From a virus (Duplodnaviria > Caudoviricetes), in IMG/VR virus record IMGVR_UViG_3300020360_000085, positions 128,001 through 192,000 of that record: 64,000 nt of DNA. One strand, 5' to 3'. Positions 28,507 through 51,415 of this stretch are shown here, in pieces; position 1 is the stretch's first letter; the number at the start of each line of letters is the position of its first letter. Both the position numbers and the translations under genes were made by a program. Under the pieces are notes generated by a model. It searched no databases, was not told where the DNA came from, and saw nothing but the letters and a program-made list of their open reading frames with translations.

Positions 28507-28534
28507 AAGCCAGTTCATATTAACTGGCTTTTTT
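28507..28534 (+). terminator. Rho-independent terminator, near-copy of 28021..28047
   Basis: AAGCCAGTT-catatt-AACTGGCTT followed by TTTT. Confidence 0.85.
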
Positions 28535-33924: not shown

Positions 33925-34634
33925 TGAGTAAAATTTGGTTTTTTGGTGATAGTTTTGCCCATCCACCTTACATAAAAGATTTGTCTGAGGACAAAAATAA
34001 TTATTGGTGGGGTACAAAATTGTGTCAAAAGCATAATTTAACACCTAGAGTTATGTCAGAGCCTGGTAGTAGTTTAACATATACACACGAACAATTATTA
34101 AGATTTAAAAATCTTATAAATGAAGGAGATTTAGTTTTTATTTTTTACACTACTCCTTACAGAATGGATTTTGGTAAAAAATCTGTAAGTATAATTTCAA
34201 ATGGTATGACTCCTGCAGGAAAATTAATACCTAGTATAGACCCTGAACATGTAGTATCAGATGAAAGATTAAATAAAATTTTAAATATGTATATTGCATT
34301 AGGCTTAGATTTAGAAAGACATCTTAATCAACAATATGCTACAGTAAATTATATACAACATGTTTTAGTACCAGACATTTTACAAAAAAGAAAGCCTAAA
34401 AAAATATTAGAATTTTACTCTTTTAGGAGAACACAATTATGTCATAGTAATGTTGTTAATCCAGAAGAAAGTTTGCTTAAATTTTTACCCGAAGCGATGG
34501 AATGGATAAAAGATATTTGTGCAAAAGATAATGTTAATGTACAAGAAATTTTTTCTGATCCTTCACATTTTGGTAATGCTAAAGTAGGAGATTATAACGA
34601 AAAATATTTAGAATATATTGAAAGTTTATTATGA
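33924..34634 (+). CDS. SGNH/GDSL-type hydrolase
   Basis: Block I FFGDSF at the N-terminus and DPSH (DxxH) near the C-terminus. Start moved to ATG 33924 (TAATG coupling). Confidence 0.65.
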   Translation: MSKIWFFGDSFAHPPYIKDLSEDKNNYWWGTKLCQKHNLTPRVMSEPGSSLTYTHEQLLRFKNLINEGDLVFIFYTTPYRMDFGKKSVSIISNGMTPAGKLIPSIDPEHVVSDERLNKILNMYIALGLDLERHLNQQYATVNYIQHVLVPDILQKRKPKKILEFYSFRRTQLCHSNVVNPEESLLKFLPEAMEWIKDICAKDNVNVQEIFSDPSHFGNAKVGDYNEKYLEYIESLL

Positions 34635-36166
34635 GTAATTATGACCAGGCCGCAGATAAGGCCAAAAAACAGTTAGACAAAATAAGTCCAACTATGTGCT
34701 ATGCAAAATGGTCACAAGTTTCTATGCATTTACATAACGGCATGACTCATAGTTGTTATCATCCGCCTACACATAAAGTTGATTTAGAAGAATTAAAAGA
34801 AAATCCTACAGCACTTCATAATACAAAAGAGAAAAAAGAACAACGTAGACAAATGTTAGCAGGTGAAAGGCCAGAAGGGTGTAGTTACTGTTGGCGTATA
34901 GAAGATGTTGGTGGAAGAAGTGATCGTGTGTATCGTAGTGGCGAATATTGGGCTCAAAATGCTAGAGAAGAAATAGCAGAAGCAGGTGCAGATGGAAATA
35001 TAAATCCACGTTACGTTGAAGTAAACTTTAATCAAGCATGTAATTTAAAATGTAGTTATTGTAGTCCACATTTAAGTAACACTTGGGAGAAAGAAATAAA
35101 ACAATTTGGACCATACAATATAGTCCAAGGAGAACATAATAATTTAAATAGTTTAGGTAAAACTGGACTTATGCCATTAAAAATTTCACAAGCAGATAAT
35201 CCATATGTTACAGCCTTTTGGAAGTGGTGGCCTGATCTTTACAAAAATATAGAAGTTTTTCGTATGACAGGAGGAGAGCCACTAATGGATAGCAACACAT
35301 TTAAAGTATTAGACTATGTGTATAAAAATCCAAATGCCTGGCTTGAAATATCTGTTACATCAAACATGTGTCCACCTAAGCCAAAACTAATGGACATGTT
35401 TATAGAATCGCTACAAAGATTAGAAGAGATACAAATTTGGGAAGACCCAGAAAAGTTTAATCCAAACTCGGGGAACAACTGGTATGTAGCACCAGCATGT
35501 AAGAACTTTGCAACATTTGTATCATGTGATGGATATGGACCTCAAGCAGAGTATATGCGTAATGGTATGGACTTTAAAATGTTAGATAAAAATGTAAACA
35601 GAATCTTAGAGGATACAACTCATAGCACAATTACATTTATTAATACATTTAATGTACTAAGTTTAACAAGTTTGAAAGAATACTTACAATGGATTTTAGA
35701 ACTTAGAGATAGATATGCTAAGGATAGACAAGGAATAAAATATATTCCTATACCAGACAATGGCGGACATAAGCACCCAGATTATGAAGTAAGACCTAAA
35801 CAAAGAATATGGTTTGATATTCCATTGCTTAGAGCACCACTTTGGCAATGTATTCAAATAATGCCTGATTATTATCAGAGTTATTTGGAAGAAGCAATAG
35901 CATTTATGGAATTAAATAGAGCAGATGAAGTAAATATAGACTATAGAGGATTTAAAGATTTTGAAATAGATAAAGTAAGACGAAATTTAGAGTGGATGAA
36001 GGCCGGCTCTATTATGGATAAAGATGAATTACTTAAAGCAAGAGCAAATTTTTTTAAATTTTTTAGTCAGCATGATGAAAGAAGAAAAACAAACTTCTTA
36101 CAAGTTTTTCCAGAAATGGAAGATTGGTGGAATATTTGTAAAGAAGCAGAAGCATTAATAATATGA
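34631..36166 (+). CDS. Radical SAM enzyme with N-terminal SPASM/twitch-like Cys cluster (rSAM1)
   Basis: CNLKCSYC, TGGEPL; N-terminal CYAKW...SCYHPP...CSYCW. Confidence 0.9.
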   Translation: MSNYDQAADKAKKQLDKISPTMCYAKWSQVSMHLHNGMTHSCYHPPTHKVDLEELKENPTALHNTKEKKEQRRQMLAGERPEGCSYCWRIEDVGGRSDRVYRSGEYWAQNAREEIAEAGADGNINPRYVEVNFNQACNLKCSYCSPHLSNTWEKEIKQFGPYNIVQGEHNNLNSLGKTGLMPLKISQADNPYVTAFWKWWPDLYKNIEVFRMTGGEPLMDSNTFKVLDYVYKNPNAWLEISVTSNMCPPKPKLMDMFIESLQRLEEIQIWEDPEKFNPNSGNNWYVAPACKNFATFVSCDGYGPQAEYMRNGMDFKMLDKNVNRILEDTTHSTITFINTFNVLSLTSLKEYLQWILELRDRYAKDRQGIKYIPIPDNGGHKHPDYEVRPKQRIWFDIPLLRAPLWQCIQIMPDYYQSYLEEAIAFMELNRADEVNIDYRGFKDFEIDKVRRNLEWMKAGSIMDKDELLKARANFFKFFSQHDERRKTNFLQVFPEMEDWWNICKEAEALII

Positions 36167-36426
36167 AAGACAGAAATAAATTTTTAGAATTAGCAAAAAA
36201 AGGTATAGTTACAGTAGAATTTAGAAAAATAGATACACAAGAATTAAGAATTATGCCCTGTACGTTAAATAATAAATTAAGCAATGGAAAAGTTCCAGAC
36301 GGAATGAAACAAAATGCAAACAATGATGATTTTGCAGTATGGTCTCTAGATAAAAATGCATGGAGAAGTTTTAGAACTAATACTGTAGAAGATTGGTATG
36401 AAGGATATCCTAAAGAGGAAAATTAA
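36163..36426 (+). CDS. Small SH3/WYL-like fold protein (DUF2693-like)
   Basis: VTVEFRKID...R.MPCTLN...VWSLDKNAWRSFR pattern typical of T4-like phage DUF2693 proteins. Confidence 0.65.
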   Translation: MKDRNKFLELAKKGIVTVEFRKIDTQELRIMPCTLNNKLSNGKVPDGMKQNANNDDFAVWSLDKNAWRSFRTNTVEDWYEGYPKEEN

Positions 36427-38087
36427 TGGGAAGAAAGCAAGGAGAGTCACATAGAGAATATAAGAAAAGGATGATAGATCCTGTTTCTGAAAGTTTCTGT
36501 GGAGCAAAGTGGTACAATGCTACTATATGGTTAGGGCATGGCGGTACTACGAGTTGTCATCACCCTCCTGCTCACCAAATAGATTTAGAAGAAATTAAAA
36601 CAAATCCAAGTGCTATCCATAACAGTAGGCATAAAAAGAAAATGCGTCAGATGATGCAAGAGGGTACTAGACCCAAAGAGTGTGAGTACTGTTGGAAGAT
36701 TGAGGACATGGGTAAAGATGCAGACGGTAATGAGCCAGTAAGTGATAGAGTTTACAAAACGGTAATATACGAAGACGAGGATTTACATACTGCGGCAACT
36801 TTAGACCCGCAGTTTGACGTAAACTTAAAAACATTAGAGATTGCATTTAACAGAACATGCCAGTTAGCATGTAGTTACTGCAACCCTGCATTCTCCTCTA
36901 CATGGGTAAAAGACATTAGAGTAAATGGCGGATATCAAGGCATAAAAAGTGATGCTAGAGGACACTTTATTGATGATGCCCCCTACGCCGAACCATTTGA
37001 TCAAGATCAATTTAATCCATATGTTGATGCTTTTTGGAGATGGTGGCCTGAACTAAGTACAGAACTAGAAGAGATTAGAGTTACAGGTGGAGAACCACTT
37101 ATGACTCCAGACATTTATCAATTATTTGATTGGTTCGAAACAACAGACGAGCCTAATAAAGACAATATGAGATTTGCAATCAATAGTAACCTTATGGCAA
37201 AAGACAGCCTATTAGACAAAATGATTGCAGGCACACAAAATATTAATAGATTCCATTTATATACAAGTTGTGAAGCATTTGGTCCACAAGCAGAATACAT
37301 TAGAGATGGCTTGGATTGGGATAAGTGGACAACAGCATTTGAAAAGGTTTGCAGTGAAGCAAACATAGAAGGTTTACACATGATGATGACTATCAATGCA
37401 TTATGCCTTGATACCATTGTTGAATTTTTCGACTGGATGCTAGAGATGAAACGTAAATACGGTCATAATCGTCCTGGATTTACCTGTAACATTTTACGTT
37501 TCCCTAGTTTCCAGTCACCCTTAACATTACCAGACCATCTACGTGCAAAATATCATGATGAGGTTTACACATGGTTACAAAAAGTTAGAAGAAAGCAGGA
37601 AAAAGATTCTACTGGACAACTTTTAGTGCAACCTTGGGAGCAAGATCAAGTAAGCAGACTAATAGAATATTTAGACGTTGTAAAAACACCACATAGAAAT
37701 ACTGCTGATAGAGAACTACTTGAACATGATTTTAAATTGTTTTATGAGCAGTATGATGCAAGACGTGGGTTAAATTTTAGAGAAACTTTTCCAAGATTAA
37801 TAGAATTTTATGACAGTATTAAATTACAAGAATTCGATACTAATGAGCAGGATATACAAGCACCTAAAACAGCAGGAGTTACAGGCGGACTTTATGCAAA
37901 ACGTGTTGTAACAGAGGACGGCGAAGTAAAAGTTGTAGAAATGAAAATGCGTAATCGTAAAACAGGCGAAAGTGAAGACGACTATGATGATGAAAAATAT
38001 GCAGAAGATGAAAAAATTAATAAAGCAGGTAGCAGTATAGGTTGGGATACAGAAACAGATGGATTAGGCGGAGCAATTGATGATTAA
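36426..38087 (+). CDS. Radical SAM enzyme with N-terminal SPASM/twitch-like cluster (rSAM2)
   Basis: CQLACSYC, TGGEPL; CGAKW...SCHHPP...CEYCW; acidic C-terminal extension. Confidence 0.9.
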   Translation: MGRKQGESHREYKKRMIDPVSESFCGAKWYNATIWLGHGGTTSCHHPPAHQIDLEEIKTNPSAIHNSRHKKKMRQMMQEGTRPKECEYCWKIEDMGKDADGNEPVSDRVYKTVIYEDEDLHTAATLDPQFDVNLKTLEIAFNRTCQLACSYCNPAFSSTWVKDIRVNGGYQGIKSDARGHFIDDAPYAEPFDQDQFNPYVDAFWRWWPELSTELEEIRVTGGEPLMTPDIYQLFDWFETTDEPNKDNMRFAINSNLMAKDSLLDKMIAGTQNINRFHLYTSCEAFGPQAEYIRDGLDWDKWTTAFEKVCSEANIEGLHMMMTINALCLDTIVEFFDWMLEMKRKYGHNRPGFTCNILRFPSFQSPLTLPDHLRAKYHDEVYTWLQKVRRKQEKDSTGQLLVQPWEQDQVSRLIEYLDVVKTPHRNTADRELLEHDFKLFYEQYDARRGLNFRETFPRLIEFYDSIKLQEFDTNEQDIQAPKTAGVTGGLYAKRVVTEDGEVKVVEMKMRNRKTGESEDDYDDEKYAEDEKINKAGSSIGWDTETDGLGGAIDD

Positions 38088-38841
38088 ATTATTTGCTAAC
38101 ATTGGAGTAGGACACGAAAACGATTGGCAAACAATTAAAGGCAGAGTTGTTGCGGCCGCTCAGTGTAATGCTGATGCAATAGTAATTACAAAGTCAACGC
38201 CAGATATTATTATACCAAAGCATAAAAGATATGTAGCAATGGAAAGTAAATGGGGAGAACTGCCATATATAGAAGTAGCAAATAAAAGTGAATTAGACGA
38301 TTTAACTGTTAAAAAATTAAATGACTTAGTAGAGCAAATAGGCATACCAGTAATATGGTGCATTACAGATATACAGGCAGGAGATTGGGTATTAGAACAT
38401 ACAAATTGCAAAGATATTAAAATACATTTTGACTCTCAAAATGATTTAGATTTATTAGAGTTTTGTTATAATAATTTTGAAAAGGTTAGATATTGTGGTA
38501 ATGAAGAAAATATTAAAATATTATATAATATGTATCCTAGTAAATCAGTAAGGAGAGAACATTTATTTTTATATCATACTACAATTAAATTTCCTCCACA
38601 AGTAGAAGAATTAAAATTAAGTAGAATAGACAATTTAAAAAAATTATTTCCTGATGCAAATATAGGATTTGAAGGACGATGTGAATCAATATATCCTGAT
38701 TGTGCTGTTGCACTTAAAGATGTAAATTATATTGAAAAATATTTGGGGGACGAAGAAGAATTTAATCCTGCTGTTTTAAGTCATCAAAAATTTTATGACT
38801 TTTTTGTAAATATGAACCAACTAGAGATAGCAAATGGCTAA
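38080..38841 (+). CDS. Degenerate NeuB/SpsE-like (N-acetylneuraminate synthase family) protein
   Basis: LFANIGVGHEND...AAAQCNADAI, LYHTTIKFPP..EELKL..I..LKKLF...IGFEGR, AVAL...IEKY follow the NeuB TIM-barrel pattern with altered catalytic residues. ATG at 38080. Confidence 0.65.
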   Translation: MIKLFANIGVGHENDWQTIKGRVVAAAQCNADAIVITKSTPDIIIPKHKRYVAMESKWGELPYIEVANKSELDDLTVKKLNDLVEQIGIPVIWCITDIQAGDWVLEHTNCKDIKIHFDSQNDLDLLEFCYNNFEKVRYCGNEENIKILYNMYPSKSVRREHLFLYHTTIKFPPQVEELKLSRIDNLKKLFPDANIGFEGRCESIYPDCAVALKDVNYIEKYLGDEEEFNPAVLSHQKFYDFFVNMNQLEIANG

Positions 38842-40237
38842 AGTTAAGCCTAAATGGGAACACGGACAAATGAGTCCAGATTCAGAAAACAAGGTGTTTT
38901 GTACAGCACCTTGGACCCATACCTATATTAGTCCACAAAGTGAAAGACGCATGTGCTGTGCTAGTAGAGAAGATCATATGATGCAAAGGCAGTATATAGA
39001 TGCAAGTAATGATAAAAGCACAGGCAAGTATAAAGAAGTAGGAACTATTGCAGATTATAAACCAGTAAGTTTGAAAGAACACTGGAATAGTCCTTACATG
39101 ATGGACATAAGAAAAAAACTTATGGCTGGCGAAGAGATTCCACAATGTGCAGTATGTAATGATAGTATTTTAAGTCAAAGTACATACAGACAATGGTTTA
39201 CTGGATTTTTATTTGAAAAATATATAGACAGGTGTTTTGAGGAGACAGATGAAAATGGATATACTAATATGGAACCAATTTCTTTTGATTACAGGGTCAG
39301 TAACCTGTGTAATTTTAAGTGTCGTATGTGTGGCGAACCTCTCTCGTCTGCTTGGGAAGGAGAGAAAAGAAAACATAATCTTTGGAGTCCGGAAAACCAA
39401 CCTTTTATGGTTCCCGAGAATAAAAAGATTATCCAGAAATTTCAGAAGGAAGTAGTTGAAGAAGAATTTTGGGACGCCATTTGTAGAGGCATTGTAGAAG
39501 AAATTTATTGGGTAGGTGGAGAACCACTAATGTATGACATTCATTGGCGTAGCATGGACAGATTAGCAAAAGATAATAATCTTAATAAAGTACATTTAAG
39601 ATATAATAGTAATTTAAGTCGTGTACGTTTTGGAGATCATTATTTGTACGACTGGCTACCACAAGCAAAAGATTGGACTATGTGTGCCAGTATAGATGGC
39701 ACGGGAGATATAGGCGAGTATATAAGAACTGGACTTAATTGGGAACAATGGGATAAAAACTTCAGAGAAGGTGTAGCATTACCAGGAGGTAATGATAAAA
39801 TGTTAATGGATTTAACATTAACAGGCCCAGGCATGTTTGATCTTAAAAACTTTTTTGATTATGCATTAGAACTAGATGTTAAGATAGAAACAAAACGCAT
39901 GTTCGCTTTCCATCCTGATATAGTAATGAGTGCTATGGCATGGCCTAGACATATACTTGACAGAATAATAGATGATGTGCTAGAATATATAAGGCCTAGG
40001 GCCACAGAAAAGCAACAAACATTAATAAGAGAATTAGAAGGCATGAAACAATCGCCTACTTTTCAAGAACAATGGCCAGAGGAGGCAGAAGATGCCTTTT
40101 TTAAAGGTAGAAATTGGCAAGATCAAATTGCAAATATTCGACCAGACGAAAAATTGCGTATAGAGGATATCTATAAGGAAGATAATGAATTATATGATTG
40201 GTGGATGAGAGTAGACCGCAAACACAATCAGCGATAA
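38834..40237 (+). CDS. Radical SAM enzyme with N-terminal SPASM/twitch-like cluster (rSAM3)
   Basis: CNFKCRMC, VGGEPL, SIDG; CTAPW...MCC...CAVC. Confidence 0.9.
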   Translation: MAKVKPKWEHGQMSPDSENKVFCTAPWTHTYISPQSERRMCCASREDHMMQRQYIDASNDKSTGKYKEVGTIADYKPVSLKEHWNSPYMMDIRKKLMAGEEIPQCAVCNDSILSQSTYRQWFTGFLFEKYIDRCFEETDENGYTNMEPISFDYRVSNLCNFKCRMCGEPLSSAWEGEKRKHNLWSPENQPFMVPENKKIIQKFQKEVVEEEFWDAICRGIVEEIYWVGGEPLMYDIHWRSMDRLAKDNNLNKVHLRYNSNLSRVRFGDHYLYDWLPQAKDWTMCASIDGTGDIGEYIRTGLNWEQWDKNFREGVALPGGNDKMLMDLTLTGPGMFDLKNFFDYALELDVKIETKRMFAFHPDIVMSAMAWPRHILDRIIDDVLEYIRPRATEKQQTLIRELEGMKQSPTFQEQWPEEAEDAFFKGRNWQDQIANIRPDEKLRIEDIYKEDNELYDWWMRVDRKHNQR

Positions 40238-40273
40238 TATACCACAAGCAACAAAACCCCCCAAAAAGACTCG

Positions 40274-40280
40274 ATAAATA
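40274..40280 (+). promoter_or_regulatory. Late promoter motif ATAAATA (leadered)
   Basis: In the only ~100-bp gap of the island, upstream of SD CAGGAG and ATG 40337. Confidence 0.6.
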
Positions 40281-40336
40281 GTGTAGTAATATGACTTTGT
40301 TATATTACACACATATTAACACAACAGGAGATAAAG

Positions 40337-41671
40337 ATGGCCTCAGTCGGATTTATCGGTGTAGGTAAGTTAGGACAAGCCTGTGCCGAGATGGTCGCTG
40401 AAGTACATGATGTTGTTGGGTATGATGTTAATCCTGTAGAGCCTGAAAACTTTACAATGAGCGACACATTGGAAGGAGCAGTACTAGGACAAGATATTGT
40501 TTTTATTGCTGTACCTACACCACATGACCCACAGTATGATGGAAAAGCACCAACCAGCCATTTACCAAATAAGGACTTTGACTACGGTTTAGTTAAGCAA
40601 GTACTTTCAGAGGTAAATGCGGTTGCAACAAAAGACCAATTAGTAGTCCTTATATCAACAGTCTTGCCTGGTACAACCAGACGAGAATTCATTGATTTAA
40701 TTCCAAATGCCAGATTCGTTTACAACCCATACTTAATTGCTATGGGCACAGTTAAATGGGATATGGTAAATCCAGAAATGGTAATGATTGGAACAGAAGA
40801 TGGAAGTGAAACAGGTGATGCAAAACAACTTGTAGACTTTTACAAAACAATAATGCAAAACGATCCTAGATATATTATAGGTACTTGGGACGAAACAGAG
40901 TGTATAAAAGTTTTTTATAACACGTTTATTTCTGCCAAAGTATCTTTAGTAAATATGATACAGGACGTTGCAGAAAAGCAAGGCAACATAAACGCAGAAG
41001 TTGTTTGTGACGCTCTTGCAACATCAGACAGACGTATTATGGGTCCAGGTTACATGAAGCCGGGCATGGGCGATGGAGGTGCTTGCCACCCCCGAGATAA
41101 TATCGCACTTCGCTGGATGGCAGAAGAACTAGATTTAGGATACGACTTATTTGATGCTGTAATGTTAAGTAGAGAAGTACAAGCAGAAAATATGGCTAAA
41201 AAATTAAGCGAATATGCAGGTGGAGATTACCACCCTACAACAAAAACTATGGTAAATTCGTTACCTATTATAATTGTAGGTAAAGCATATAAGCCTTTAG
41301 TTGAATATGAAGCAGGTTCAAGTAGTATGTTAGTGGGACATTACATAGATAGTATGGGTCACGAACTGTATTACTACGATGAAAAAACAGGAGATATACC
41401 TCCACAACAAGTTTTAGATAAACCAGCAGTATATTTATTAGCACATAATCCTAGTATTACATACGGTGATCAGTTGGATACAGTACCTGGTTGGTATAAT
41501 GGCGAACACAATGTAACAGATTGTGATACAGCACTTATTTCAACAGGTAATGGTACAGAATTATATTTTGCACCAGACAGTATTGTTATTGATCCTTGGA
41601 GGAAAACACCACATATAATGGGCGTAAAAGTAGTACATTATGGAAACACTCGTAAAGAGTCTATGAGATAA
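40337..41671 (+). CDS. ugd: UDP-glucose/GDP-mannose dehydrogenase family protein
   Basis: GFIGVGKLG Rossmann motif, FIAVPTP, STVLPGTT, YNP, KVFYNTF, catalytic GGACHPRD. Nucleotide-sugar specificity not determinable by eye. Confidence 0.9.
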   Translation: MASVGFIGVGKLGQACAEMVAEVHDVVGYDVNPVEPENFTMSDTLEGAVLGQDIVFIAVPTPHDPQYDGKAPTSHLPNKDFDYGLVKQVLSEVNAVATKDQLVVLISTVLPGTTRREFIDLIPNARFVYNPYLIAMGTVKWDMVNPEMVMIGTEDGSETGDAKQLVDFYKTIMQNDPRYIIGTWDETECIKVFYNTFISAKVSLVNMIQDVAEKQGNINAEVVCDALATSDRRIMGPGYMKPGMGDGGACHPRDNIALRWMAEELDLGYDLFDAVMLSREVQAENMAKKLSEYAGGDYHPTTKTMVNSLPIIIVGKAYKPLVEYEAGSSSMLVGHYIDSMGHELYYYDEKTGDIPPQQVLDKPAVYLLAHNPSITYGDQLDTVPGWYNGEHNVTDCDTALISTGNGTELYFAPDSIVIDPWRKTPHIMGVKVVHYGNTRKESMR

Positions 41672-41672
41672 A

Positions 41673-43004
41673 ATGGCAGAACCTAGATATTGTAGTTTAT
41701 TATGGTCACATCTGAGCAATGAACCATTAGGGCATGTAAGAACATGTTGTATTGCTAAAGAGCGAGTAAAAGACGACAATGGTGAAGATTTTACACTAGG
41801 TTCTACGTCAGTTAGAGATATTTTTCATAGCAACTACTACAAAAAGATAAGGCAAGAAATTAGAGAAGGTAAATTACCAGATAATTGTGAGCCTTGTTGG
41901 CGAGAAGAAGATAACGGAAAAAGATCCAAAAGACAAATTTACAATGAATATTCCTCTTGGAGACTTGATCCTATAGATTATTCTATAGAGCCAGACATGC
42001 CTCAAGATATGCAACTTATTTTAAGTACAACGTGTAATTTAAAATGCAGAAGTTGTAATCCAAATTACAGTAGTAAATGGGTAAAAGAAGCAGATGCAAG
42101 AGGACTTCCATATTTTAAGGAAATGGTACAAGTACCTATGGGAGATCAGGAACGGTCTAAATTTTGGACTCAAATGGACGATTGGATTCCGCACATAAAA
42201 AATTTAGAGATTATGGGCGGAGAACCATTGTACATGAAAGAGTTTAAGGATTTTGCAGGTAAACTGATCGATAGAAATTTAGCAAAAGATATTGAAATTA
42301 ATTTTAGTACAAATGGAACACAGGCAGGAGGAGAATTTTTAGATAGTATTGTTGAAAATTTTAAAAATGTTTCTTTTAATGTTAGTATAGATGGTATAGG
42401 AAAAAGATTTGAATATTTGAGATTTCCAGGTAAATGGGACAAAGTAGAACAAAATTTAGATAAGATACACAAATGGAGAGAAGAAGGAAAAATTCATGTG
42501 GGTGTAACCAATACAGTAACAATATTAAACTTAATGTATTTGTTAGAATTTCATGTAGAGTTCGCGAAGCGATGGCCTTTATTTGATATCTTTCATAATA
42601 TAGCAAATTTACCAAGTTGGTTTAATCCTAATGTTTTGCCTGATCACATGAAAGAAAAATCTGTTGAAAGTTTACAACGTGGATTAAGAGAAAATAAATT
42701 TCCTACTGAATTACTAGGAGATATAAAAGGTATAATAAAACATGCAACTGCTTTACAAAAAGATGTAATAAGACCTTATGGCTCTTTAGAAGAAGGGCAT
42801 ACTATAGAAGGAGAGATTGCAGTACGTTGGAATATGTTTAGAAAACAAGTTGTTGCAGGAGACGAATACAGAAAAGAAGATTTTAGACAAGTTTTTCCTG
42901 AATTATGGGAAATTGTAAAAGAAGATTTTAATTATGATTTACTATACTCTAGGGCACAAAAAGACCCTATGTATAGTTCAATAGAAAAAGGAACATTTAT
43001 ATAA
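41673..43004 (+). CDS. Radical SAM enzyme with N-terminal SPASM/twitch-like cluster (rSAM4)
   Basis: CNLKCRSC, MGGEPL, SIDG; CSLLW...TCC...CEPCW. Confidence 0.9.
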   Translation: MAEPRYCSLLWSHLSNEPLGHVRTCCIAKERVKDDNGEDFTLGSTSVRDIFHSNYYKKIRQEIREGKLPDNCEPCWREEDNGKRSKRQIYNEYSSWRLDPIDYSIEPDMPQDMQLILSTTCNLKCRSCNPNYSSKWVKEADARGLPYFKEMVQVPMGDQERSKFWTQMDDWIPHIKNLEIMGGEPLYMKEFKDFAGKLIDRNLAKDIEINFSTNGTQAGGEFLDSIVENFKNVSFNVSIDGIGKRFEYLRFPGKWDKVEQNLDKIHKWREEGKIHVGVTNTVTILNLMYLLEFHVEFAKRWPLFDIFHNIANLPSWFNPNVLPDHMKEKSVESLQRGLRENKFPTELLGDIKGIIKHATALQKDVIRPYGSLEEGHTIEGEIAVRWNMFRKQVVAGDEYRKEDFRQVFPELWEIVKEDFNYDLLYSRAQKDPMYSSIEKGTFI

Positions 43005-44251
43005 TGGGTGCTTATGACGACAAATTTTGTCCATTACCTTGGATACATCTAGGTACGCACCCTCACGGCGGTGTTACCCCTTGTTGCATATCAGATATGA
43101 CAGCAGGAAAAAATAGAGCAAGAAATTATGGTAAAGAACAGGATCAGTTCTTTAATTTAAATGATAACACTATAGCCGAACATATGAATAGTGATTATTT
43201 TAAACAAATTAGATTGGAGATGTTAAATGATGTGGAGCCTAAAGCATGTAGCAGATGCTACGAGGAAGAAAGAAAAGGAATTGAGAGCAAACGTATCCAC
43301 GAGTCCAAGGTTTATAAGAACATTGACCCCGATTACGCATCCAGACTTACAAGTAAGGATGGTAGCATACCTTTGGACCTTCGTTTTGTTGAGTTGCGTC
43401 TTGGCAATGTATGTAATGTCCGTTGTCGTACTTGTAATCCAGCAAGTAGTTCAAGGTGGGTTAAGGATTATAAAGAAATTGTGGATTCCCTGGACTTCGT
43501 AAATGATGGATACAGTTGGTTAGATCATAAACACGATTTTCAATGGCCTGAAGACGATGAATTTTATAGAGATTTATTTAATTGTGCACCTAATTTAGAG
43601 GTACTTTATATAAATGGTGGAGAGCCTACACTTATTAAAGCACATTGGAAGTTTTTAGAAAGGCTAGTTGAAAGTGGACGTAGTAAAAATATAATATTAT
43701 GGTATAATATTAATATGACACAAGTTCCAGACAAAGCGATTCCTTTATGGAAAGAATTTAAAGAAGCCAGAGTATGTCCTAGTATTGACGACTTGGATTA
43801 CAGAAATAAATTTATCAGATACCCTACAGAATGGTCAGATGTAGAGCAAAATTTAGAAAAAATTATGCAGGTACCTGAACTTACTGTAAGAATTACTCAA
43901 ACAGTAAGTGCATACAGTTATATCTATTTAGACGAATTTTTAAACTGGGCACCAGTGCCTGTAGATATGAACTTTGTATATGACCCTGATTACCTATCGC
44001 CTGGAATATTACCTCCTGTCGTGAGACACGAGGCCCATGCCAAGTTTAGAAAAACGATGGGTAACAGACATGAACTTGGAACATTGTTAAGCATGTATAA
44101 TGACGATAATTGGGACGAAGTTAAATGGGAACACTTTTGTCGGTACAATGACGAGTTAGACAGAATACGCCAACACGAACAAGGTTGGAGGGAAGTTTTC
44201 CCAGAATTAATAGAAATATTGGATAAACATGGAATACAGCACAAATATTAG
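43004..44251 (+). CDS. Radical SAM enzyme with N-terminal SPASM/twitch-like cluster (rSAM5)
   Basis: CNVRCRTC, NGGEPT; CPLPW...PCC...CSRCY. Confidence 0.9.
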   Translation: MGAYDDKFCPLPWIHLGTHPHGGVTPCCISDMTAGKNRARNYGKEQDQFFNLNDNTIAEHMNSDYFKQIRLEMLNDVEPKACSRCYEEERKGIESKRIHESKVYKNIDPDYASRLTSKDGSIPLDLRFVELRLGNVCNVRCRTCNPASSSRWVKDYKEIVDSLDFVNDGYSWLDHKHDFQWPEDDEFYRDLFNCAPNLEVLYINGGEPTLIKAHWKFLERLVESGRSKNIILWYNINMTQVPDKAIPLWKEFKEARVCPSIDDLDYRNKFIRYPTEWSDVEQNLEKIMQVPELTVRITQTVSAYSYIYLDEFLNWAPVPVDMNFVYDPDYLSPGILPPVVRHEAHAKFRKTMGNRHELGTLLSMYNDDNWDEVKWEHFCRYNDELDRIRQHEQGWREVFPELIEILDKHGIQHKY

Positions 44252-45365
44252 TAAAACTAAAAATAATTTAGACGTTGTACATGCAAATCCTGATGGGTAT
44301 AGTGATATTTTAGATAGTGTAAAAAATGATAGTTTTACAAATATAATTGATTACACAGAAATAAGTAGTGCAAATATAACTAACTTTACTAAAAGTGCAT
44401 TAGAAAAAATGCCTAAAAAAGAATGCATTATATTAATACATTTGACAGAAGCATTTAGTAGTGTTTATTGGAATATAGTATTTGAAATTGTAAAAAGTTA
44501 TGGTGTTAAAAAAATTATTTGGATAGACGGAGGACTTACTCCAGGATATTTGTATAGGCATTTAAATGATATAACAATTTCACATAAACCTTCATATTAT
44601 TTTTTTACTAGATTGCTAGAAGAAAAAAATAATTTATATAATAAAAATTTAGTTTATAAGGATAAAAAATATTACTATGTAAGTTTAGGAAGATTAACAA
44701 GACAAGAAAGAGTTTATTTAACAAATAAAATTATAGAGGATACAGACTTAAAAAATAAAGGAATTATAAGTTGTGGATGGGGCAACAATGAGGAAAATAC
44801 TATATGGAAAAATAGTTATCATTTACAATGTGCAGAGGATTTAATAGGCAATACTGTAGGGAAATTTCCTATTAGTTTAGGAGATATAGATTCAGAGCAA
44901 TACGATATTTTACATGATTTTGATTTAGCAGTATTTAACATTGTACAAGAATCATCAGTAGGATTTAACAGTATAAGTCATAATACAACTTATTCTGAAA
45001 ATCCTTATTGGAGTTCTATAGATAGTGATAGACATTTTTTTACAGAAAAATCTGCAAAGGCATTTTTAATGGGACAGATACCATTATTTTTAGCAACTCC
45101 TGGATATGTGCAACAATTAAGAAAACTAGGATTTGATGTATTTGATGACATTGTAGATCATGATTATGATAAAGAAGATTATGTAATTAAAAGGTGTAAT
45201 GAAGTTTATAAAGAATTAAAACGTATTAGTTTACAAGATCTAAAACACTTAGATTACAAAGTTAAAACTTATTGCTACCAGAGATTACAAAATAATATAG
45301 ACAATTTAATAAAATTAGGTAATAAAGAAAATTTAATAGAATGGATAAACAACCAGATAGCATAG
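44229..45365 (+). CDS. Putative glycosyltransferase-related protein (GT10/GT-B-like C-terminus)
   Basis: FNIVQES...FFTEKSAKAFLMGQIPLFLATPGYVQQLRKLGFDVF resembles the fucosyltransferase-like ITEK..K...PI region. Tentative. Confidence 0.45.
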   Translation: MEYSTNISKTKNNLDVVHANPDGYSDILDSVKNDSFTNIIDYTEISSANITNFTKSALEKMPKKECIILIHLTEAFSSVYWNIVFEIVKSYGVKKIIWIDGGLTPGYLYRHLNDITISHKPSYYFFTRLLEEKNNLYNKNLVYKDKKYYYVSLGRLTRQERVYLTNKIIEDTDLKNKGIISCGWGNNEENTIWKNSYHLQCAEDLIGNTVGKFPISLGDIDSEQYDILHDFDLAVFNIVQESSVGFNSISHNTTYSENPYWSSIDSDRHFFTEKSAKAFLMGQIPLFLATPGYVQQLRKLGFDVFDDIVDHDYDKEDYVIKRCNEVYKELKRISLQDLKHLDYKVKTYCYQRLQNNIDNLIKLGNKENLIEWINNQIA

Positions 45366-46576
45366 ACTTTAACGAAGTTAAAGACAACGATGTAATGTGT
45401 ATCCTACCATGGATTCATATGCACCCTTGGCCTAACGGAAAAACAATGTTATGTTGTGACTCTCCTTGGGAGTCGCATATTGGTGATTTAAGAGAAAATA
45501 GTTTACAAGAAGTATGGAATAGCGAAGACATGAAACAGGTACGTCTTAAAATGCTACAAGGTAAAAAATGTAAACAATGTGTACGTTGTTACGAAAAAGA
45601 AAAATATGGACATGACAGTTTAAGAGTAAGAAGTAATAAAGACTGGTTAGAAAAGCATTGGGACAAAGTAACAAAAACTAATCCAGATGGCAGTCTAGAT
45701 GATTTACATATTGTGTATTTAGATTTTCGCTTTAGTAATGTTTGTAATTTACGTTGTAGATACTGTGGTCCAGAATTAAGTAGTAATTGGTTTAAAGATG
45801 CTGTAAAAAGTTCTTGGAATATTACACCTACAGAGCAAGTAATACAGATTAGAAATGATGTTGATGGATTTATGGGAGAGTTTGAGCCTATGTTAGAACA
45901 CATAGAGCAAATTTATTGGGCAGGTGGAGAACCAATTATAATGGACGAACATTGGGCCATAATGAATAAACTTGTAGAAATGGGTAAAACCGATATACGA
46001 ATATTTTACAATACAAACTTTACAAAATTAAAATATAAAAAATTTAATGTTCTCGACTTATGGAAAAACTTTGATCATATTAGTATAGGTGCTAGTTTAG
46101 ATGCCGAGGGAGCCAGAGGAGAGTATCAACGTAAAGGAACTAAATGGGCAGATGTAATTAGTAACATTGAACAATTAAGAGAACAAGCACCTGAAATAGA
46201 TTTTTATATTAGTGCAACAGTAAGTGCCTATAATGCCTGGCATATTACAGACTTCCATAGAAATTGGGTTAAGAAAGGTTATATAAAACCAGGAGACTGG
46301 TATATGAATGTACTTTTAAATAATCCACGTTTTAGAATGAGTGTTTTACCTAAAGAATTTAAACAAGAGATTAAATACAAGTGGGAAAAACATTTAAAAT
46401 GGTTAGAGCCACAGGATCATATAGGCAGAGCAACTGAAGGTTACAAGAGTGCTATAAAATTTTTAGATGATGATCATACAGAACTGTGGCAAGAGTTTAA
46501 AGATTTCAATATAGAATTTGATAAACTAAGGGAGGAAAACTTTGAGGAAGTATATCCAGAGTTAGCAAAATTATGA
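45341..46576 (+). CDS. Radical SAM enzyme with N-terminal SPASM/twitch-like cluster (rSAM6)
   Basis: CNLRCRYC, AGGEPI; CILPW...LCC...CVRCY. Confidence 0.9.
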   Translation: MDKQPDSIDFNEVKDNDVMCILPWIHMHPWPNGKTMLCCDSPWESHIGDLRENSLQEVWNSEDMKQVRLKMLQGKKCKQCVRCYEKEKYGHDSLRVRSNKDWLEKHWDKVTKTNPDGSLDDLHIVYLDFRFSNVCNLRCRYCGPELSSNWFKDAVKSSWNITPTEQVIQIRNDVDGFMGEFEPMLEHIEQIYWAGGEPIIMDEHWAIMNKLVEMGKTDIRIFYNTNFTKLKYKKFNVLDLWKNFDHISIGASLDAEGARGEYQRKGTKWADVISNIEQLREQAPEIDFYISATVSAYNAWHITDFHRNWVKKGYIKPGDWYMNVLLNNPRFRMSVLPKEFKQEIKYKWEKHLKWLEPQDHIGRATEGYKSAIKFLDDDHTELWQEFKDFNIEFDKLREENFEEVYPELAKL

Positions 46577-47766
46577 GTAAACATTTTTGTCCAATGCCGT
46601 TTGTAAACTTAGAAGCCAGAACTGATGGCTCTATGTCTATATGCTGTCAAATGGACGAACTAATTAATGATAATGGTAAAAATTTATCACTTACAGAAGA
46701 TGTTTTAACAGACGGCTGGAATAGTAATTGGTTAGCAAACTTAAGAAAAGATTTTTTAGATGGTAAAAAACCTAAGTCTTGTTACAGTTGCTGGACGGCC
46801 GAAGATGCAGGAATAGATAGTAAAAGACAAAGAGCATTAAGGGATTTTCCTAATGCTTTAGAAGAAGCATTAAATAAAAAAGAAAATATAAAGCCTAAAT
46901 CCATGGATTTAAAGTTAGGTAATGTATGCAATAACAAATGTAGAATTTGTAATAGTTTTGCTAGTAGTTTATGGGTACCAGAAGAAAAGAAACGAGATGG
47001 TACAAACAATTTGTTTTGGGATAGGATGAGAGTTGTAGGAAGATGGCCTGAAACAAATGAAGAATTTTGGCACGATTTTGAAGATCTTAGTGATGATTTA
47101 GAAGTTTTAGAATTTTATGGTGGCGAACCTTTATTAATAAAAAGACATTATGACATATTACAAGACTTAGTAGATTCTGGAAAAAGTAAAGATATAAAAT
47201 TACTTTATAACACAAACGGATCAATATATCCTGAAAGAGGCTTAGAACTTTGGCCGCATTTTAAAAAGGTAATGTTAAGTTGGAGTTTCGATGGTGTAGG
47301 CTCTCAATTCGAATATATTAGGCATCCTGCAAAATGGGATCAAGTACAACAAAATTTACAAAAAGTAATAGATAAAAATATTCCCAATATATATTTAGAT
47401 ATTTGTTATACTGTAGGTATATTTAATATATACTATATGGAAGAAATATTGAATTGGAGAGACAGTTTCAAAAGTGATTTGCCAATTTATTTTAATCATG
47501 TTTACACACCAGAACATTTTAGTTGTAAAGTATTACCAGAAGCAGTTAAACAAAAAGTTGTAGAAAAATATAAAGATAGTACACATCCAGATATTATTAG
47601 TTCTGTAAAATATTGTACAGATGTAAATTATGATATAGAAAAGATGAATATGTTTTACAGTCAAGTTAAATATAGTGATGATTTTAGAGGTGAAAGTTTT
47701 GCAAAAACATTTCCTGAATTTTACGAATTATTAAAAAATTATGCAAATGCACCAGAGGATTTTTAA
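46573..47766 (+). CDS. Radical SAM enzyme with N-terminal SPASM/twitch-like cluster (rSAM7)
   Basis: CNNKCRIC, YGGEPL, SFDG; CPMPF...ICC...CYSCW. Confidence 0.9.
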   Translation: MSKHFCPMPFVNLEARTDGSMSICCQMDELINDNGKNLSLTEDVLTDGWNSNWLANLRKDFLDGKKPKSCYSCWTAEDAGIDSKRQRALRDFPNALEEALNKKENIKPKSMDLKLGNVCNNKCRICNSFASSLWVPEEKKRDGTNNLFWDRMRVVGRWPETNEEFWHDFEDLSDDLEVLEFYGGEPLLIKRHYDILQDLVDSGKSKDIKLLYNTNGSIYPERGLELWPHFKKVMLSWSFDGVGSQFEYIRHPAKWDQVQQNLQKVIDKNIPNIYLDICYTVGIFNIYYMEEILNWRDSFKSDLPIYFNHVYTPEHFSCKVLPEAVKQKVVEKYKDSTHPDIISSVKYCTDVNYDIEKMNMFYSQVKYSDDFRGESFAKTFPEFYELLKNYANAPEDF

Positions 47767-49076
47767 TGTCTAAGGAATACAGTAAAACATTTTGTCCGTA
47801 TCCTTGGATACATGTAATGACACAACCAACTGGTACTATTAGTTGGTGTTGTGTTGCACGAGATAATTTTAAAGACGACCATGGTAAAATGGTAGATCTA
47901 AATCAAGGACATAAAATAGAGGATGTCTGGAATAGCAATCATATGCGTAAAATCCGCCAAGAAATGATCGAGGGAACAGTGGTAAAAGGTTGTGAGCATT
48001 GTTATGATTTAGAAGATATGGGTTTCCCTAGTTATAGAACAAACTATATTAGGGATTGGTTTGAATACAGTGGAAAAGGAGAAGAAATCCATGAACGTAT
48101 AGAACGAAGTATAAGCAATAACTTTAGAGTAGAAGAACCCCCAATGTACTTGGATTTTAGGTTAGGCAATATGTGTAACCTGAAGTGTAGAATGTGCCAA
48201 CCCCAAAATTCAAGTCAAATACAGAAGGAATATAAAAAAATAGAAACGGCTGACCCAAGTGCAGGAAAGTTCATTAAGGACAACTTCACTTGGGGACAGT
48301 TTGCAGATCATATAACACCATGGCAAGATGATCCTGAGTTTCTAAGACAAGTGGAAGAATGGTTACCAGGTGTAAACAAACTTTATTTTACTGGCGGAGA
48401 GCCAACTATTATAGAACGTGTTTATTGGATTATGGAAAAATGCGTAGAAATGGGCATAGCAAAAGATATAGAGTTAGTGTTTAACAGCAACATGACCAAC
48501 ATTCAGAAACGTTTTCTGGACTTGGTAGAGCAGTTTAAAAATGTATTAATGTGCATAAGTGTAGATGCTTATGGACATGAAAACGAATATATTAGAGGTG
48601 CAAGTCATTGGAGTAGAGTTGAGAAAAATTTAAGAACATATTGTGCTAGTGATGTTGTTGGAACTGTACTGTTTAGTCCTGTAATACAAATTTATAATGT
48701 ATTAACAATTACAAAACTACTGGACTTTTGTGAGGAATTAGAATTAGAATATGGAAGAGAAGTATTTGTAACATTTTTAATTTGTGACTACCCTACAAGT
48801 TTAGATTTTAGAAATTGTCCAGAGCAAGTACGTGAAGTTGCCGCAGGTAGACTAGAAATGTGGCTCAAGCAAAGTAAAATTTTAGCAAATAGACCTGAAA
48901 ATGTGCAATCCATAAATGCAACAATAAAGGCACTTAAAGAAAACCGTAAAGAAAATTGGCGACAGGAACTAATCACATTCCAAAAATATACAGAAATGTT
49001 AGATAAGCAAAGAAGTGAAAGTATGCAAGAAGCACTTCCAGAATTATATAATCTAATGTATAACAGTAACAGATAA
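47766..49076 (+). CDS. Radical SAM enzyme with N-terminal SPASM/twitch-like cluster (rSAM8)
   Basis: CNLKCRMC, TGGEPT; CPYPW...WCC...CEHCY. Confidence 0.9.
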   Translation: MSKEYSKTFCPYPWIHVMTQPTGTISWCCVARDNFKDDHGKMVDLNQGHKIEDVWNSNHMRKIRQEMIEGTVVKGCEHCYDLEDMGFPSYRTNYIRDWFEYSGKGEEIHERIERSISNNFRVEEPPMYLDFRLGNMCNLKCRMCQPQNSSQIQKEYKKIETADPSAGKFIKDNFTWGQFADHITPWQDDPEFLRQVEEWLPGVNKLYFTGGEPTIIERVYWIMEKCVEMGIAKDIELVFNSNMTNIQKRFLDLVEQFKNVLMCISVDAYGHENEYIRGASHWSRVEKNLRTYCASDVVGTVLFSPVIQIYNVLTITKLLDFCEELELEYGREVFVTFLICDYPTSLDFRNCPEQVREVAAGRLEMWLKQSKILANRPENVQSINATIKALKENRKENWRQELITFQKYTEMLDKQRSESMQEALPELYNLMYNSNR

Positions 49077-49123: not shown

Positions 49124-49717
49124 ATGTCAGAGCCTATTGTAATAGACAATTTTTTACCTAAAAATGTTTTAGAAAAGATTGATCATTTTTACAAAACTGC
49201 ATCATTAAAATTATCTATGGGAGAAATAGATGATACACCTACTTTTTTACAATGTTCTATAGGTGTTGAGGAACTTCTAGGTGTATTTGAGTTAGATACT
49301 TATATAGAAAAACATTTAAATAATACATATAAAAATTGTACATTTAAAAATTTAGAAAGATTTTATATCAATATACTTACTAATGCAGAAAAAAATAAAA
49401 TGGTAGGGCATAGGGACATAAATGAGAGCGATTTAACAGAAGATGATTTTTATTTAATTAGTATAATTTTTTTAAATCCAGAAGGAAATAAAGATACAGG
49501 TATTTACATTAACGAAAATTATTATGAGGACGTTTATAACAGAATGATTTTATTTGATGGTACAAATTGGCATAAAGCGGTTGCTCCACAGGACGACTAT
49601 GTAAGAATTACATTTTATGCAAATTTTTCAAATCGTATATCTAAAAATAATGTATTTAGACAATTAAAAAATGCAGATGCATGTTCAAAATATTTTAAAA
49701 ATGTTTATAGGAAATAA
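49124..49717 (+). CDS. 2OG-Fe(II) oxygenase superfamily protein
   Basis: VIDNFL start, HRD (HxD), NRMILFDG..WH (distal His), downstream R in RITF. Confidence 0.8.
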   Translation: MSEPIVIDNFLPKNVLEKIDHFYKTASLKLSMGEIDDTPTFLQCSIGVEELLGVFELDTYIEKHLNNTYKNCTFKNLERFYINILTNAEKNKMVGHRDINESDLTEDDFYLISIIFLNPEGNKDTGIYINENYYEDVYNRMILFDGTNWHKAVAPQDDYVRITFYANFSNRISKNNVFRQLKNADACSKYFKNVYRK

Positions 49718-49718
49718 G

Positions 49719-49904
49719 ATGGAAGAGAGAAATCAGAAACATAAACAACAAGATTTAACAGAACTTAATAGTGATGGTAATCGAGAAAGAGGTAGAGAAG
49801 GTGAAGACTTATCTAATGAAATACAACTTACAAAAGAAGAAGAAGAGCAGTTGAAAAAGAAATTAGAAAAATTAAGACAGCAAGATCCTTTTATATATAG
49901 ATGA
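49719..49904 (+). CDS. Small charged hypothetical protein (61 aa)
   Basis: ATG 49719 right after the oxygenase stop; ATGA overlap with the next gene; E/K/R-rich, ends DPFIYR. Confidence 0.55.
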   Translation: MEERNQKHKQQDLTELNSDGNRERGREGEDLSNEIQLTKEEEEQLKKKLEKLRQQDPFIYR

Positions 49905-51415
49905 GAATTTTAGGATTAAGTTTTGGTTTTCATGATGCAGGTGCTTGTATGCTTGACTTTAAAAACATAGAGTTTGCAAGTCATTCAGAAAGATATACCA
50001 AAGTAAAAAACGATCCATGGATAAATCATGACCTAATAGATGCGGCAATAGAAAATGGAAAGCCTGATATAATAGTTTTACACGAAAAAGCATGGGCAAA
50101 AAGAATTCGTAATTTACTAAATGCAAATTTTAGAGCCCTAAGAGAACCAACTCAAAGACAATGGATTAAAAAATTTTATCCCCAACTGAAAGATATACCT
50201 ATAAAAGATTATTGGCATCATGAAACACATGCGGCCGCAGGTGTATTAAGTAGTAATTTTGATGAGTGTGCTGTAATGGTAATAGATGCTATTGGAGAAT
50301 TTAATACAGCAACAATTTGGCAATGGAAAGATGGTAATTTAAAAAAATTACATAGTGTAAATTTTCCAAGCAGTTTAGGTTTATTTTATAGTGCTGTAAC
50401 AAGTCATGTAGGTCTTAAACCTATGGAAGACGAATATATTTTAATGGGAATGGCCGCATATGGTAAAACAGAAAACTGGAAACCATTATCAAGAAAAATG
50501 GGTAAGAAATTTTTTAAATTTAAACATCCATGGATAAGTCATAGGCAAACAATAGACGGAATTTATAATTTACAAAGAGGACTACCTAAAAACAGTTTTG
50601 TAGGTGTTGATGAATTTGATATGGCCGCGGCCGCACAAAATCAAGTTGAACAAAGGGTAAAAGCATTTGCTCAACATGCCAAAGAAATTACGGGTAGTAA
50701 TAATTTAGTTTACATGGGAGGAGTAGCACTTAATTGTGTAGCCAATAGTAAACTATTTGATATTTTTAAAAATATTTTTATAATGCCTAACCCAGGAGAT
50801 TGTGGGAGCAGTTTAGGTGCGGCCGCACTTGAACTTTACAATCAAACTGGAGAAAAAATAAATTGGAAAACGCCTTACACAGGATACAATATACCTGGAA
50901 AATATCCAATTAAAAAGGCATTAGCAAGTTTAAAGGCGGGGGAACTATTTGGTATAGCAAATGGCAAAGCGGAATTTGGGCCACGTGCATTAGGCAATAG
51001 AAGTTTATGTGCAGATCCTAGAGGACCAGACGTTAAGGATAAAATGAATGTAATTAAAAAACGTCAAAAGTTTAGACCATTCGCACCAATGATATTGGAA
51101 GAACATGTGCATGATTATTTTGAAATGCCAGGTGGCATTACTCATGCACCGTATATGCAATTTGTTGCAAAGTGCAAAAATCCAGAAGAGTTTCCTGCTA
51201 TAATACATGAAGACGGTACAAGCCGTGTTCAAACAGTTCGCAAGGAAGAACATCCTGATTTACACGATCTGCTATCAAAATTTTACAAACAGACAGGTTG
51301 CCCTATGTTACTTAATACAAGTTTAAACATTAAAGGACAGCCAATTGTAAATGATGAAAAAGACGCAGAAGCCTTTGCTCAACATTATGGAGTAAAGGTA
51401 CATGTCAGAGATTGA
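49901..51415 (+). CDS. Carbamoyltransferase (NodU/CmcH/TobZ family)
   Basis: GFHDAG, HHETHAAA, DAIGE, SLGLFY, MGMAAYG, GGVALNC, PGDCG, EFGPRALGNRS, KFRPFAP, LLNTSLN. Confidence 0.92.
   Translation: MRILGLSFGFHDAGACMLDFKNIEFASHSERYTKVKNDPWINHDLIDAAIENGKPDIIVLHEKAWAKRIRNLLNANFRALREPTQRQWIKKFYPQLKDIPIKDYWHHETHAAAGVLSSNFDECAVMVIDAIGEFNTATIWQWKDGNLKKLHSVNFPSSLGLFYSAVTSHVGLKPMEDEYILMGMAAYGKTENWKPLSRKMGKKFFKFKHPWISHRQTIDGIYNLQRGLPKNSFVGVDEFDMAAAAQNQVEQRVKAFAQHAKEITGSNNLVYMGGVALNCVANSKLFDIFKNIFIMPNPGDCGSSLGAAALELYNQTGEKINWKTPYTGYNIPGKYPIKKALASLKAGELFGIANGKAEFGPRALGNRSLCADPRGPDVKDKMNVIKKRQKFRPFAPMILEEHVHDYFEMPGGITHAPYMQFVAKCKNPEEFPAIIHEDGTSRVQTVRKEEHPDLHDLLSKFYKQTGCPMLLNTSLNIKGQPIVNDEKDAEAFAQHYGVKVHVRD

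Follow-up and report, generated by a model that had tools for sequence, protein, structure and literature searches.

Why would a T4-like phage carry eight related radical S-adenosylmethionine (SAM) enzymes side by side? The question is raised by IMG/VR virus record IMGVR_UViG_3300020360_000085 (250,519 bp), which encodes a T4-type Gp23 capsid protein and of which bases 128001-192000, a stretch of 64,000 nucleotides, are called the window here. Eight open reading frames (ORFs) of 397-553 amino acids (aa), r1-r8, lie on the + strand of the window at 34631-49076, with four other genes interspersed among them. An earlier note, made from the letters alone, had taken them for a phage-expanded family of inverted architecture acting on sugars. 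The answer we favour, with about even confidence, is that r1-r8 are enzymes of the catalogued family NF033640 that carry out successive radical tailoring steps on a sugar within a conserved phage cassette.

Eight members of one radical SAM family

The eight genes are as follows; bit scores refer to NCBIfam model NF033640.

34631..36166, + strand: r1, N_Twi radical SAM of the r1/r2 subgroup, 511 aa, 328 bits
36426..38087, + strand: r2, N_Twi radical SAM, 553 aa, 304 bits
38834..40237, + strand: r3, N_Twi radical SAM without the C-terminal FPE motif, 467 aa, 300 bits
41673..43004, + strand: r4, N_Twi radical SAM, 443 aa, 310 bits
43004..44251, + strand: r5, N_Twi radical SAM, 415 aa, 358 bits
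45341..46576, + strand: r6, N_Twi radical SAM, the prototype-like member of the family, 411 aa, 400 bits
46573..47766, + strand: r7, N_Twi radical SAM, start overlapping the r6 stop by 4 nucleotides, 397 aa, 362 bits
47766..49076, + strand: r8, N_Twi radical SAM, 436 aa, 355 bits

NF033640 (N_Twi_rSAM, ‘twitch domain-containing radical SAM protein’) spans 398 model positions and has a curated cut-off of 170 bits. All eight proteins match this one curated hidden Markov model end to end at 300-400 bits (E 1e-89 to 1e-119), which places the eight-gene observation far beyond chance. The inverted layout described in the earlier note is therefore real but already catalogued: NF033640 has the same domain order, the same four N-terminal Cys, CxxxCxxC and GGEP, and we found no structural difference between it and r1-r8; it is a bioinformatic catalogue entry without an assigned function. 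A search of the whole record returned exactly r1-r8 in the window and one ninth, shorter copy elsewhere:

G000:C1:236671-237582 (= L030:1624-2589), - strand: ninth N_Twi radical SAM, 321 aa, without the C-terminal helical domain, 212 bits

Alignment of r1-r8 bears out the motif order first described, with an N-terminal Cys set ahead of CxxxCxxC, followed by GGEP and S-x-(D/E). In r1 numbering, the four N-terminal Cys (C23, C42, C84 and C87) are invariant, as are the CxxxCxxC residues C137, C141 and C144, which are also invariant across 113 family members; G214-G215-E216-P217 (GGEP), S298, R310, F474 and D482 are likewise invariant among the eight, and all share the Ser-x-Asp/Glu motif. The C-terminal domain has no conserved Cys, either in this alignment or among the 113 members. 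Finer observations of the note also hold. The CxAKW, SCxHPP and FWxWWP motifs are confined to r1 and r2, which form a subgroup; five of the eight lack an aromatic residue before the third Cys (r3 RMC, r4 RSC, r5 RTC, r7 RIC and r8 RMC, the others being SYC in r1 and r2 and RYC in r6); and the C-terminal D..R...F..FPE motif occurs in seven, being absent from r3. Both r1 and r2 carry inserts relative to NF033640, and r2 has a 90-residue acidic C-terminal tail. Pairwise identity is only ~20% (33% between r1 and r2), which marks r1-r8 as old paralogs. Stop and start codons overlap at the r6/r7 and r7/r8 junctions.

The family is large, with r6 matching 1,555 clusters (50% identity) at E 1e-30 or better. 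Among cultured phages, megablast with the entire region matched nothing, and tblastn of r6 found distant copies only (22-27% identity), in Vibrio phages K566 and K567, Ralstonia phage RsoM2USA and one marine single-virus contig. In K566, the copy belongs to a small group of radical SAM genes surrounded by hypothetical ones, from which no functional clue emerged.

The radical SAM load of this phage group is already in print, though not analysed. TARA_ERS488813_N000010, a 183-kb T4-like marine phage, has an A-type Fe-S carrier and 12 radical SAM genes, which Nishimura et al. (2017, mSphere, PMC5332604) counted only as Fe-S clients; the family, its architecture, the orthologous set and the sugar context were not noted. 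The record studied here is alike in both respects, which speaks for Fe-S chemistry in its enzymes, with an A-type carrier (PF01521; G000:C1:242146-242448, - strand) and at least 12 Radical_SAM matches, and a Tara contig encodes a protein (P0020) that is 82% identical to r6. Four of the matches belong to other families:

G000:C1 233475-233960, 244190-244681, 9679-9984 and 8160-8432: other-family radical SAM matches

An N-terminal twitch domain

Pfam Radical_SAM is found in all eight proteins and Pfam SPASM in five, over the N-terminal 70-90 residues (about 7-110). A profile built from the first ~110 residues of 38 family members and searched against all Protein Data Bank (PDB) sequences had a sole match, the butirosin 2-deoxy-scyllo-inosamine dehydrogenase BtrN (4M7S/4M7T; E 1e-6), over BtrN residues 161-239, within its C-terminal twitch. 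In the profile alignment, the four conserved N-terminal Cys of the family fall on BtrN C169, C187, C232 and C235, which we take to be the four ligands of the BtrN auxiliary cluster. The N-terminal Cys module, proposed earlier to be a twitch, is thus by homology a true twitch domain. The same alignment supports a prediction of one fully Cys-ligated auxiliary [4Fe-4S] cluster for the family, which by analogy would serve electron transfer rather than substrate binding.

The likeness to BtrN is confined to this module, where the four-Cys motif is the same and its spacing nearly equal. In BtrN the twitch follows the barrel, whereas in r1-r8 it precedes it; r1-r8 have an extra C-terminal helical domain of ~70 residues; and the BtrN core is not specifically similar, as BtrN is not among the best 50 structural matches to the whole r6 model. 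Canonical SPASM proteins of the anSME, PqqE and CteB type differ further, in having a C-terminal seven-Cys CX9-15GX4C...CX2CX5CX3C...C motif and two auxiliary clusters, whereas r1-r8 have only four conserved Cys outside the core, all N-terminal, and do not qualify as canonical SPASM proteins.

The AlphaFold2 model of r6 (pLDDT 96, pTM 0.92) has a partial TIM-barrel core, residues ~122-379, that superposes on solved radical SAM cores at Z 11-12.6 with a root-mean-square deviation of 3.5-4.3 Å. The best matches are BlsE (Z 12.6), anSME (12.2), CteB (12.0), SkfB (11.7), viperin (11.7) and MoaA (11.3). Only the core aligns in these proteins, none of which has an N-terminal auxiliary domain, and because sequence identity is only 13-16%, no function can be transferred from them. 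The r6 sequence found nothing meaningful in the PDB, and a Swiss-Prot structure library held no reviewed protein with the whole architecture, cores alone aligning. A precedent for an N-terminal auxiliary [4Fe-4S] domain exists in the radical SAM tetraether lipid synthase GDGT-MAS/Tes, where the cluster is held by three Cys and one His on the protein surface (PMC9433317). That cluster is unrelated to the twitch, and the likeness of the enzyme to r1-r8 is limited to the generic core.

Old subfamilies shared by phages and bacteria

Each of the eight paralogs has a 1:1 ortholog in two other phages (G001 and G002), and two divergent T4-like contigs (G010) add orthologs of r1, r2, r3, r6 and r7; related IMG/VR phage records hold 8-12 family copies each. 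The same subfamilies occur in Bdellovibrionota, where one Bacteriovoracaceae array (L040) holds orthologs of r1, r2, r3, r5, r6 and r7. Bacterial orthologs of r1 are L118_4815 and L040_12838, both from Bacteriovoracaceae and additional to those of phages G001, G002 and G010; those of r2, beside the phage ones, are L040_6019, L040_14325 and a copy in L039. A clade with L118_6320 and L040_7380 includes r3 (support 100), r5 groups with L040_8714 (support 99), and r8 pairs with Halobacteriovoraceae L081_14555 (support 94, branch not starred). For r4, which is sister to the r7 group, the sample contains phage orthologs only. The Bdellovibrionota arrays adjoin genes such as Obg, PhoX, Ppx and polyphosphate kinase, and this setting among housekeeping genes identifies them as chromosomal. 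Among cellular genomes, one from Bacteriovoracaceae has 8 copies, and an Elusimicrobia metagenome-assembled genome (MAG; MJ-2014_bin-0981, 2.9 Mb; G009, L046-L090) has 53.

Some apparent bacterial copies were set aside. The ‘Haliscomenobacter’ cassette (L114/L124 = G010:C1; L115 = G010:C3) was ruled out as bacterial, as both contigs carry a T4 Gp23 capsid gene, and MAG contigs L033, L034 and L036, labelled Legionellales, Rickettsiales and Gammaproteobacteria, share phage accessory genes. These three and the G010 contigs are probably T4-like phage contigs mis-binned into MAGs.

Monophyly was assessed with an approximately unbiased (AU) test on a smaller, fixed sequence set, in which r1-r8 were forced into one clade against 21 bacterial homologs. 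A single clade was rejected (delta lnL 1140, p-AU 3e-5). The claim of a phage-expanded family, for which a phylogeny had been proposed as the check, thus falls on three counts: the 1:1 orthologs in phages and Bdellovibrionota chromosomes, the AU test and the bacterial arrays of 8 to 53. As judged from these sequences, r1-r8 are eight different enzymes, representing ancient subfamilies inherited as a set, along with the sugar-handling genes of a cassette kept by a widespread clade of marine T4-like phages, rather than recent copies. Expansion by recent duplication in this phage lineage, although suggested by the tandem, co-oriented arrangement and common architecture of r1-r8 and by the phage-only r4 orthologs, one of them duplicated again in G002, is barely credible against ~20% pairwise identity, orthologs in three other phage lineages and in the Bacteriovoracaceae and Halobacteriovoraceae arrays, and the AU result, with r4 as a possible exception.

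A conserved cassette behind a giant virion protein gene

The radical SAM genes lie in a block of ~28554 to 55908, entirely on the + strand, downstream of a gene for a very large virion protein:

5638..24348, + strand: giant virion structural protein, 6236 aa, matching phrog_10938 in segments and also baseplate-wedge-like PHROGs

Between this gene and the cassette, proteins of 221 (phrog_11259, unknown function), 616 (tail-fibre-like) and 348 residues are encoded. Two nearly identical hairpin terminators on the + strand (AAGCCAGTT...AACTGGCTT followed by a T run; 28018-28044 and 28507-28530) bracket a gene for a 150-residue membrane protein, and the sole exact T4-late TATAAATA box on the + strand of the window (28053-28060) lies between them. 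One-mismatch TATAAATA variants at 28541 and 40273 are not taken as evidence, and a sigma-70 promoter scan was at chance level.

Seven other phage records (G001-G005 and both G010 contigs) have a colinear homolog of the giant gene ahead of the cassette, encoding 4,660-6,800 residues (5,500-6,800 in all five of the close relatives checked), and in G001-G005 and G010 C3, where sizes of about 5,000-6,800 were judged mostly from open-frame lengths, the distance upstream of the cassette is the same. The kept order is giant protein, 616- and 348-residue proteins, 294-, 288- and 332-residue proteins, radical SAM set and carbamoyltransferase; divergent contig G010 C1 retains it in full at 23-47% identity.

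The cassette genes other than r1-r8 are the following.

28900..29595, + strand: phosphomannomutase-type HAD enzyme at the cassette head (PF03332, E 2.3e-26)
29588..30472, + strand: conserved cassette protein, 294 aa, no family match; orthologs in G002 (63%), G010, L034 and L036
31396..32262, + strand: conserved cassette protein, 288 aa, phrog_1903 (unknown function); orthologs in G002, G010, L034 and L036
32926..33924, + strand: GT-A-like putative glycosyltransferase, 332 aa, VDGD motif (AlphaFold2 model, pLDDT 78; Foldseek)
36163..36426, + strand: WYL_2/Sm-like protein between r1 and r2, 87 aa (PF10902, E 3.7e-7); 61% identical ortholog in G002
38077..38841, + strand: NeuB-like (nonulosonic-acid-synthase-like) TIM barrel, 254 aa, highly diverged (PF03102, E 1.7e-13)
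40337..41671, + strand: UDP-glucose/GDP-mannose dehydrogenase family (PF00984, PF03721); 77-82% identical orthologs in G001 and G002
44229..45365, + strand: unassigned 378-aa protein, no Pfam, PHROG or NCBIfam match; weak homologs inside the G010 cassette
49124..49717, + strand: 197-aa protein with an HxD...H pattern (phrog_274, E 1.8e-11)
49901..51415, + strand: NodU/CmcH-type carbamoyltransferase (PF02543, PF16861)
51622..54675, + strand: 1017-aa protein with repeated GT-A-like domains (weak PF00535 match)

Most accessory ORFs were left unnamed by NCBIfam, Pfam and PHROGs, and several assignments are tentative. For the 332-residue protein, the Foldseek top 50 are nearly all GT-A glycosyltransferases at a weak E of ~1e-3; it has >7,785 close homologs in ocean metagenomes, and its Protein Atlas matches are treated as a lead only. 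The 1017-residue protein consists of four or five repeats of the same GT-A-like domain, each with a DxD motif. The NeuB-like protein scores 40 bits against NeuB_NnaB, far under the cut-off of 399, and the 378-residue protein has an Atlas feature score of 0.80 to GT10 (fucosyltransferase) clusters, a weak lead. From its sequence pattern, the 197-residue protein is a possible small 2-oxoglutarate (2OG)-Fe(II) oxygenase; the G002 cassette holds a Pfam-annotated 2OG oxygenase. The carbamoyltransferase is kept in all phage cassettes and also adjoins some bacterial arrays. In a 339-kb relative, a methyltransferase-like gene, a 2OG oxygenase and an FA_desaturase-family gene stand inside the array, the last (L110:8084-8797) at about the place of the 378-residue gene of the window.

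A kinase-like AAA_28 gene ends the cassette block. The co-oriented block is terminated by the gene for an 811-residue FG-GAP repeat protein on the - strand (55900-58335), where the sign of the GC skew switches.

Proposed sugar tailoring and its alternatives

What do the eight enzymes act on? A sugar or glycan product is favoured because of the phage gene context, in which a phosphomannomutase, a NeuB-like protein, a UDP-sugar dehydrogenase, a carbamoyltransferase and GT-A-like proteins accompany the radical SAM set. Two family members are paired with dehydrogenases: the r4 start lies 2 nucleotides past the stop of the UDP-sugar dehydrogenase gene (40337..41671), and a short, 267-residue UDP-sugar-dehydrogenase-like gene (L030:2582-3385, - strand) ends within the ninth copy. 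Together they hint at uronic-acid-type substrates. One natural fusion (P0211) joins a glycosyltransferase family 2 (GT2) domain to an r6-like domain, and a chromosomal copy in Gemmatimonadaceae sits between a sugar nucleotidyltransferase and a GT2-deacetylase. BtrN, the sole solved twitch relative, acts on an aminocyclitol. The cassette context, the dehydrogenase pairings, P0211, the Gemmatimonadaceae locus and the BtrN substrate are our reasons for favouring successive sugar tailoring.

Each enzyme would cleave SAM at its CxxxCxxC cluster and remove hydrogen from a sugar, present either as a nucleotide sugar or within a growing glycan, with a different position or intermediate attacked by each paralog. 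As in BtrN, the twitch cluster with its full set of Cys ligands would accept or give back the electron, and the overall outcome could be an oxidation, an epimerisation, a dehydration or a decarboxylation. Assembly and decoration of the product would follow, through the GT-A-like transferases and the carbamoyltransferase, and the acceptor would probably belong to the virion or the cell surface; the giant virion protein is a candidate.

Several observations weigh against sugar tailoring. The Bdellovibrionota arrays, although made of the same subfamilies, have no glycosyltransferase or sugar-nucleotide genes nearby, and PhyH dioxygenases (8 of 118 ORFs) and TPR proteins head the list of neighbours at 22 bacterial loci, where carbamoyltransferase and GT2 each appear only twice. 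Nearly all Elusimicrobia copies have 150-800 residues of TPR fused to the N_Twi domain, the fused genes forming head-to-tail arrays of four to seven. Peptide-modifying enzymes (anSME, CteB and SkfB) are among the closest solved cores, within one Z unit of BlsE; the GT-A assignments depend on weak structural matches; and the synteny with the giant protein gene may merely mirror a conserved T4-like gene order. No NF033640 member has an assigned substrate, and literature searches covering N-terminal twitch or SPASM domains, the family itself and radical SAM genes with carbamoyltransferase in myoviruses returned no paper on NF033640. The sugar role proposed earlier is plausible and is the reading best supported by the phage context, with the Bdellovibrionota arrays and the TPR fusions counting against it.

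The alternative that survives best, which we consider unlikely but worth serious attention, is that the enzymes modify a protein, for example the giant virion protein, by epimerisation, cross-linking or oxidation, with one site per paralog. TPR repeats usually bind proteins, and many bacterial members are fused to TPR or Sel1 repeats; a Bacteriovoracaceae pair lies between a PrmA-like protein methyltransferase and a TPR protein; SuiB, beside anSME, CteB and SkfB, is among the nearest solved cores; and the phage cassette is always found behind the gene for a virion protein of 4,660-6,800 residues. Yet r1-r8 have no Pfam match of the recognition-element type found with ribosomally synthesized and post-translationally modified peptides, no precursor-like gene was recognised, and the twitch matches BtrN alone, a sugar-type enzyme. 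The giant protein contains 0.3% Cys and no evident repeated target motif, the phage cassette is filled with sugar genes, and no homolog of the giant protein was found with the Bdellovibrionota arrays.

How the eight proteins work together is a separate matter, and the possibility that they form a hetero-oligomeric machine rather than independent sequential enzymes would fit any substrate. Two-domain fusions combine r6-like with r7-like domains (P0122, P0123 and P0126), r6-like with r8-like domains (P0128, P0129 and P0270) and r5-like with r6-like domains, pairings that mirror the window order r5-r6-r7-r8. The overlapping codons at r6/r7 and r7/r8 and the co-inheritance of the same subfamilies across phages and bacteria point the same way. 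Consecutive steps of a pathway would, however, be just as likely to show fusion and co-inheritance; many genomes have a single r6-like copy, and we judge such a machine rather improbable. A complex prediction for r6 and r7 scored 0.00, which, with controls not run, counts neither for nor against binding. The earlier suggestion of successive action or a hetero-oligomer is compatible with the fusions, which fit either alternative alike.

That the set makes or tailors a lipid or other small molecule instead of a glycan is doubtful but, like the protein reading, still a live rival. The FA_desaturase-family gene within the array of the 339-kb relative, the recurrence of PhyH and WelO5-type oxygenases as bacterial neighbours, the weak core likeness to Tes/GDGT-MAS and the Bdellovibrionota arrays that stand alone all fit it; against these, the Tes likeness covers the generic core only, the window shows no genes of the acyl-carrier, polyketide or isoprenoid kind, and sugar enzymes dominate the phage cassette. 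Hypermodification of phage DNA with a tailored sugar is very improbable: T4-like phages glycosylate DNA and the kinase-like AAA_28 gene closes the block, but the cassette is part of the structural module, downstream of the virion protein genes, the terminator hairpins and the TATAAATA box, and its proteins showed no DNA-binding or base-flipping domain.

Significance

The architecture is known from the NCBI catalogue and the radical SAM gene count from the 2017 paper. New here are a residue-level BtrN anchor for the twitch assignment; the recognition, by orthology and the AU test, that the paralogs form an orthologous set of great age and not a phage expansion; naturally fused proteins, which point to the members that act together; and the fixed place of the cassette behind the giant virion protein gene. 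More speculatively, and in our estimate probably too far-reaching, the co-inherited set of six to eight subfamilies could be a dedicated multi-enzyme radical assembly line, possibly physically associated and common to ocean T4-like phages and predatory Bdellovibrionota, that builds a heavily rearranged, not yet described sugar-derived decoration, displayed in the phage on the giant virion protein.

No reaction has been assigned to N_Twi_rSAM, a very large family of which very abundant ocean phages maintain conserved multi-paralog sets. Identification of its substrate would give radical SAM chemistry a new branch and might account for the way in which large marine phages decorate their particles or the surfaces of their hosts.

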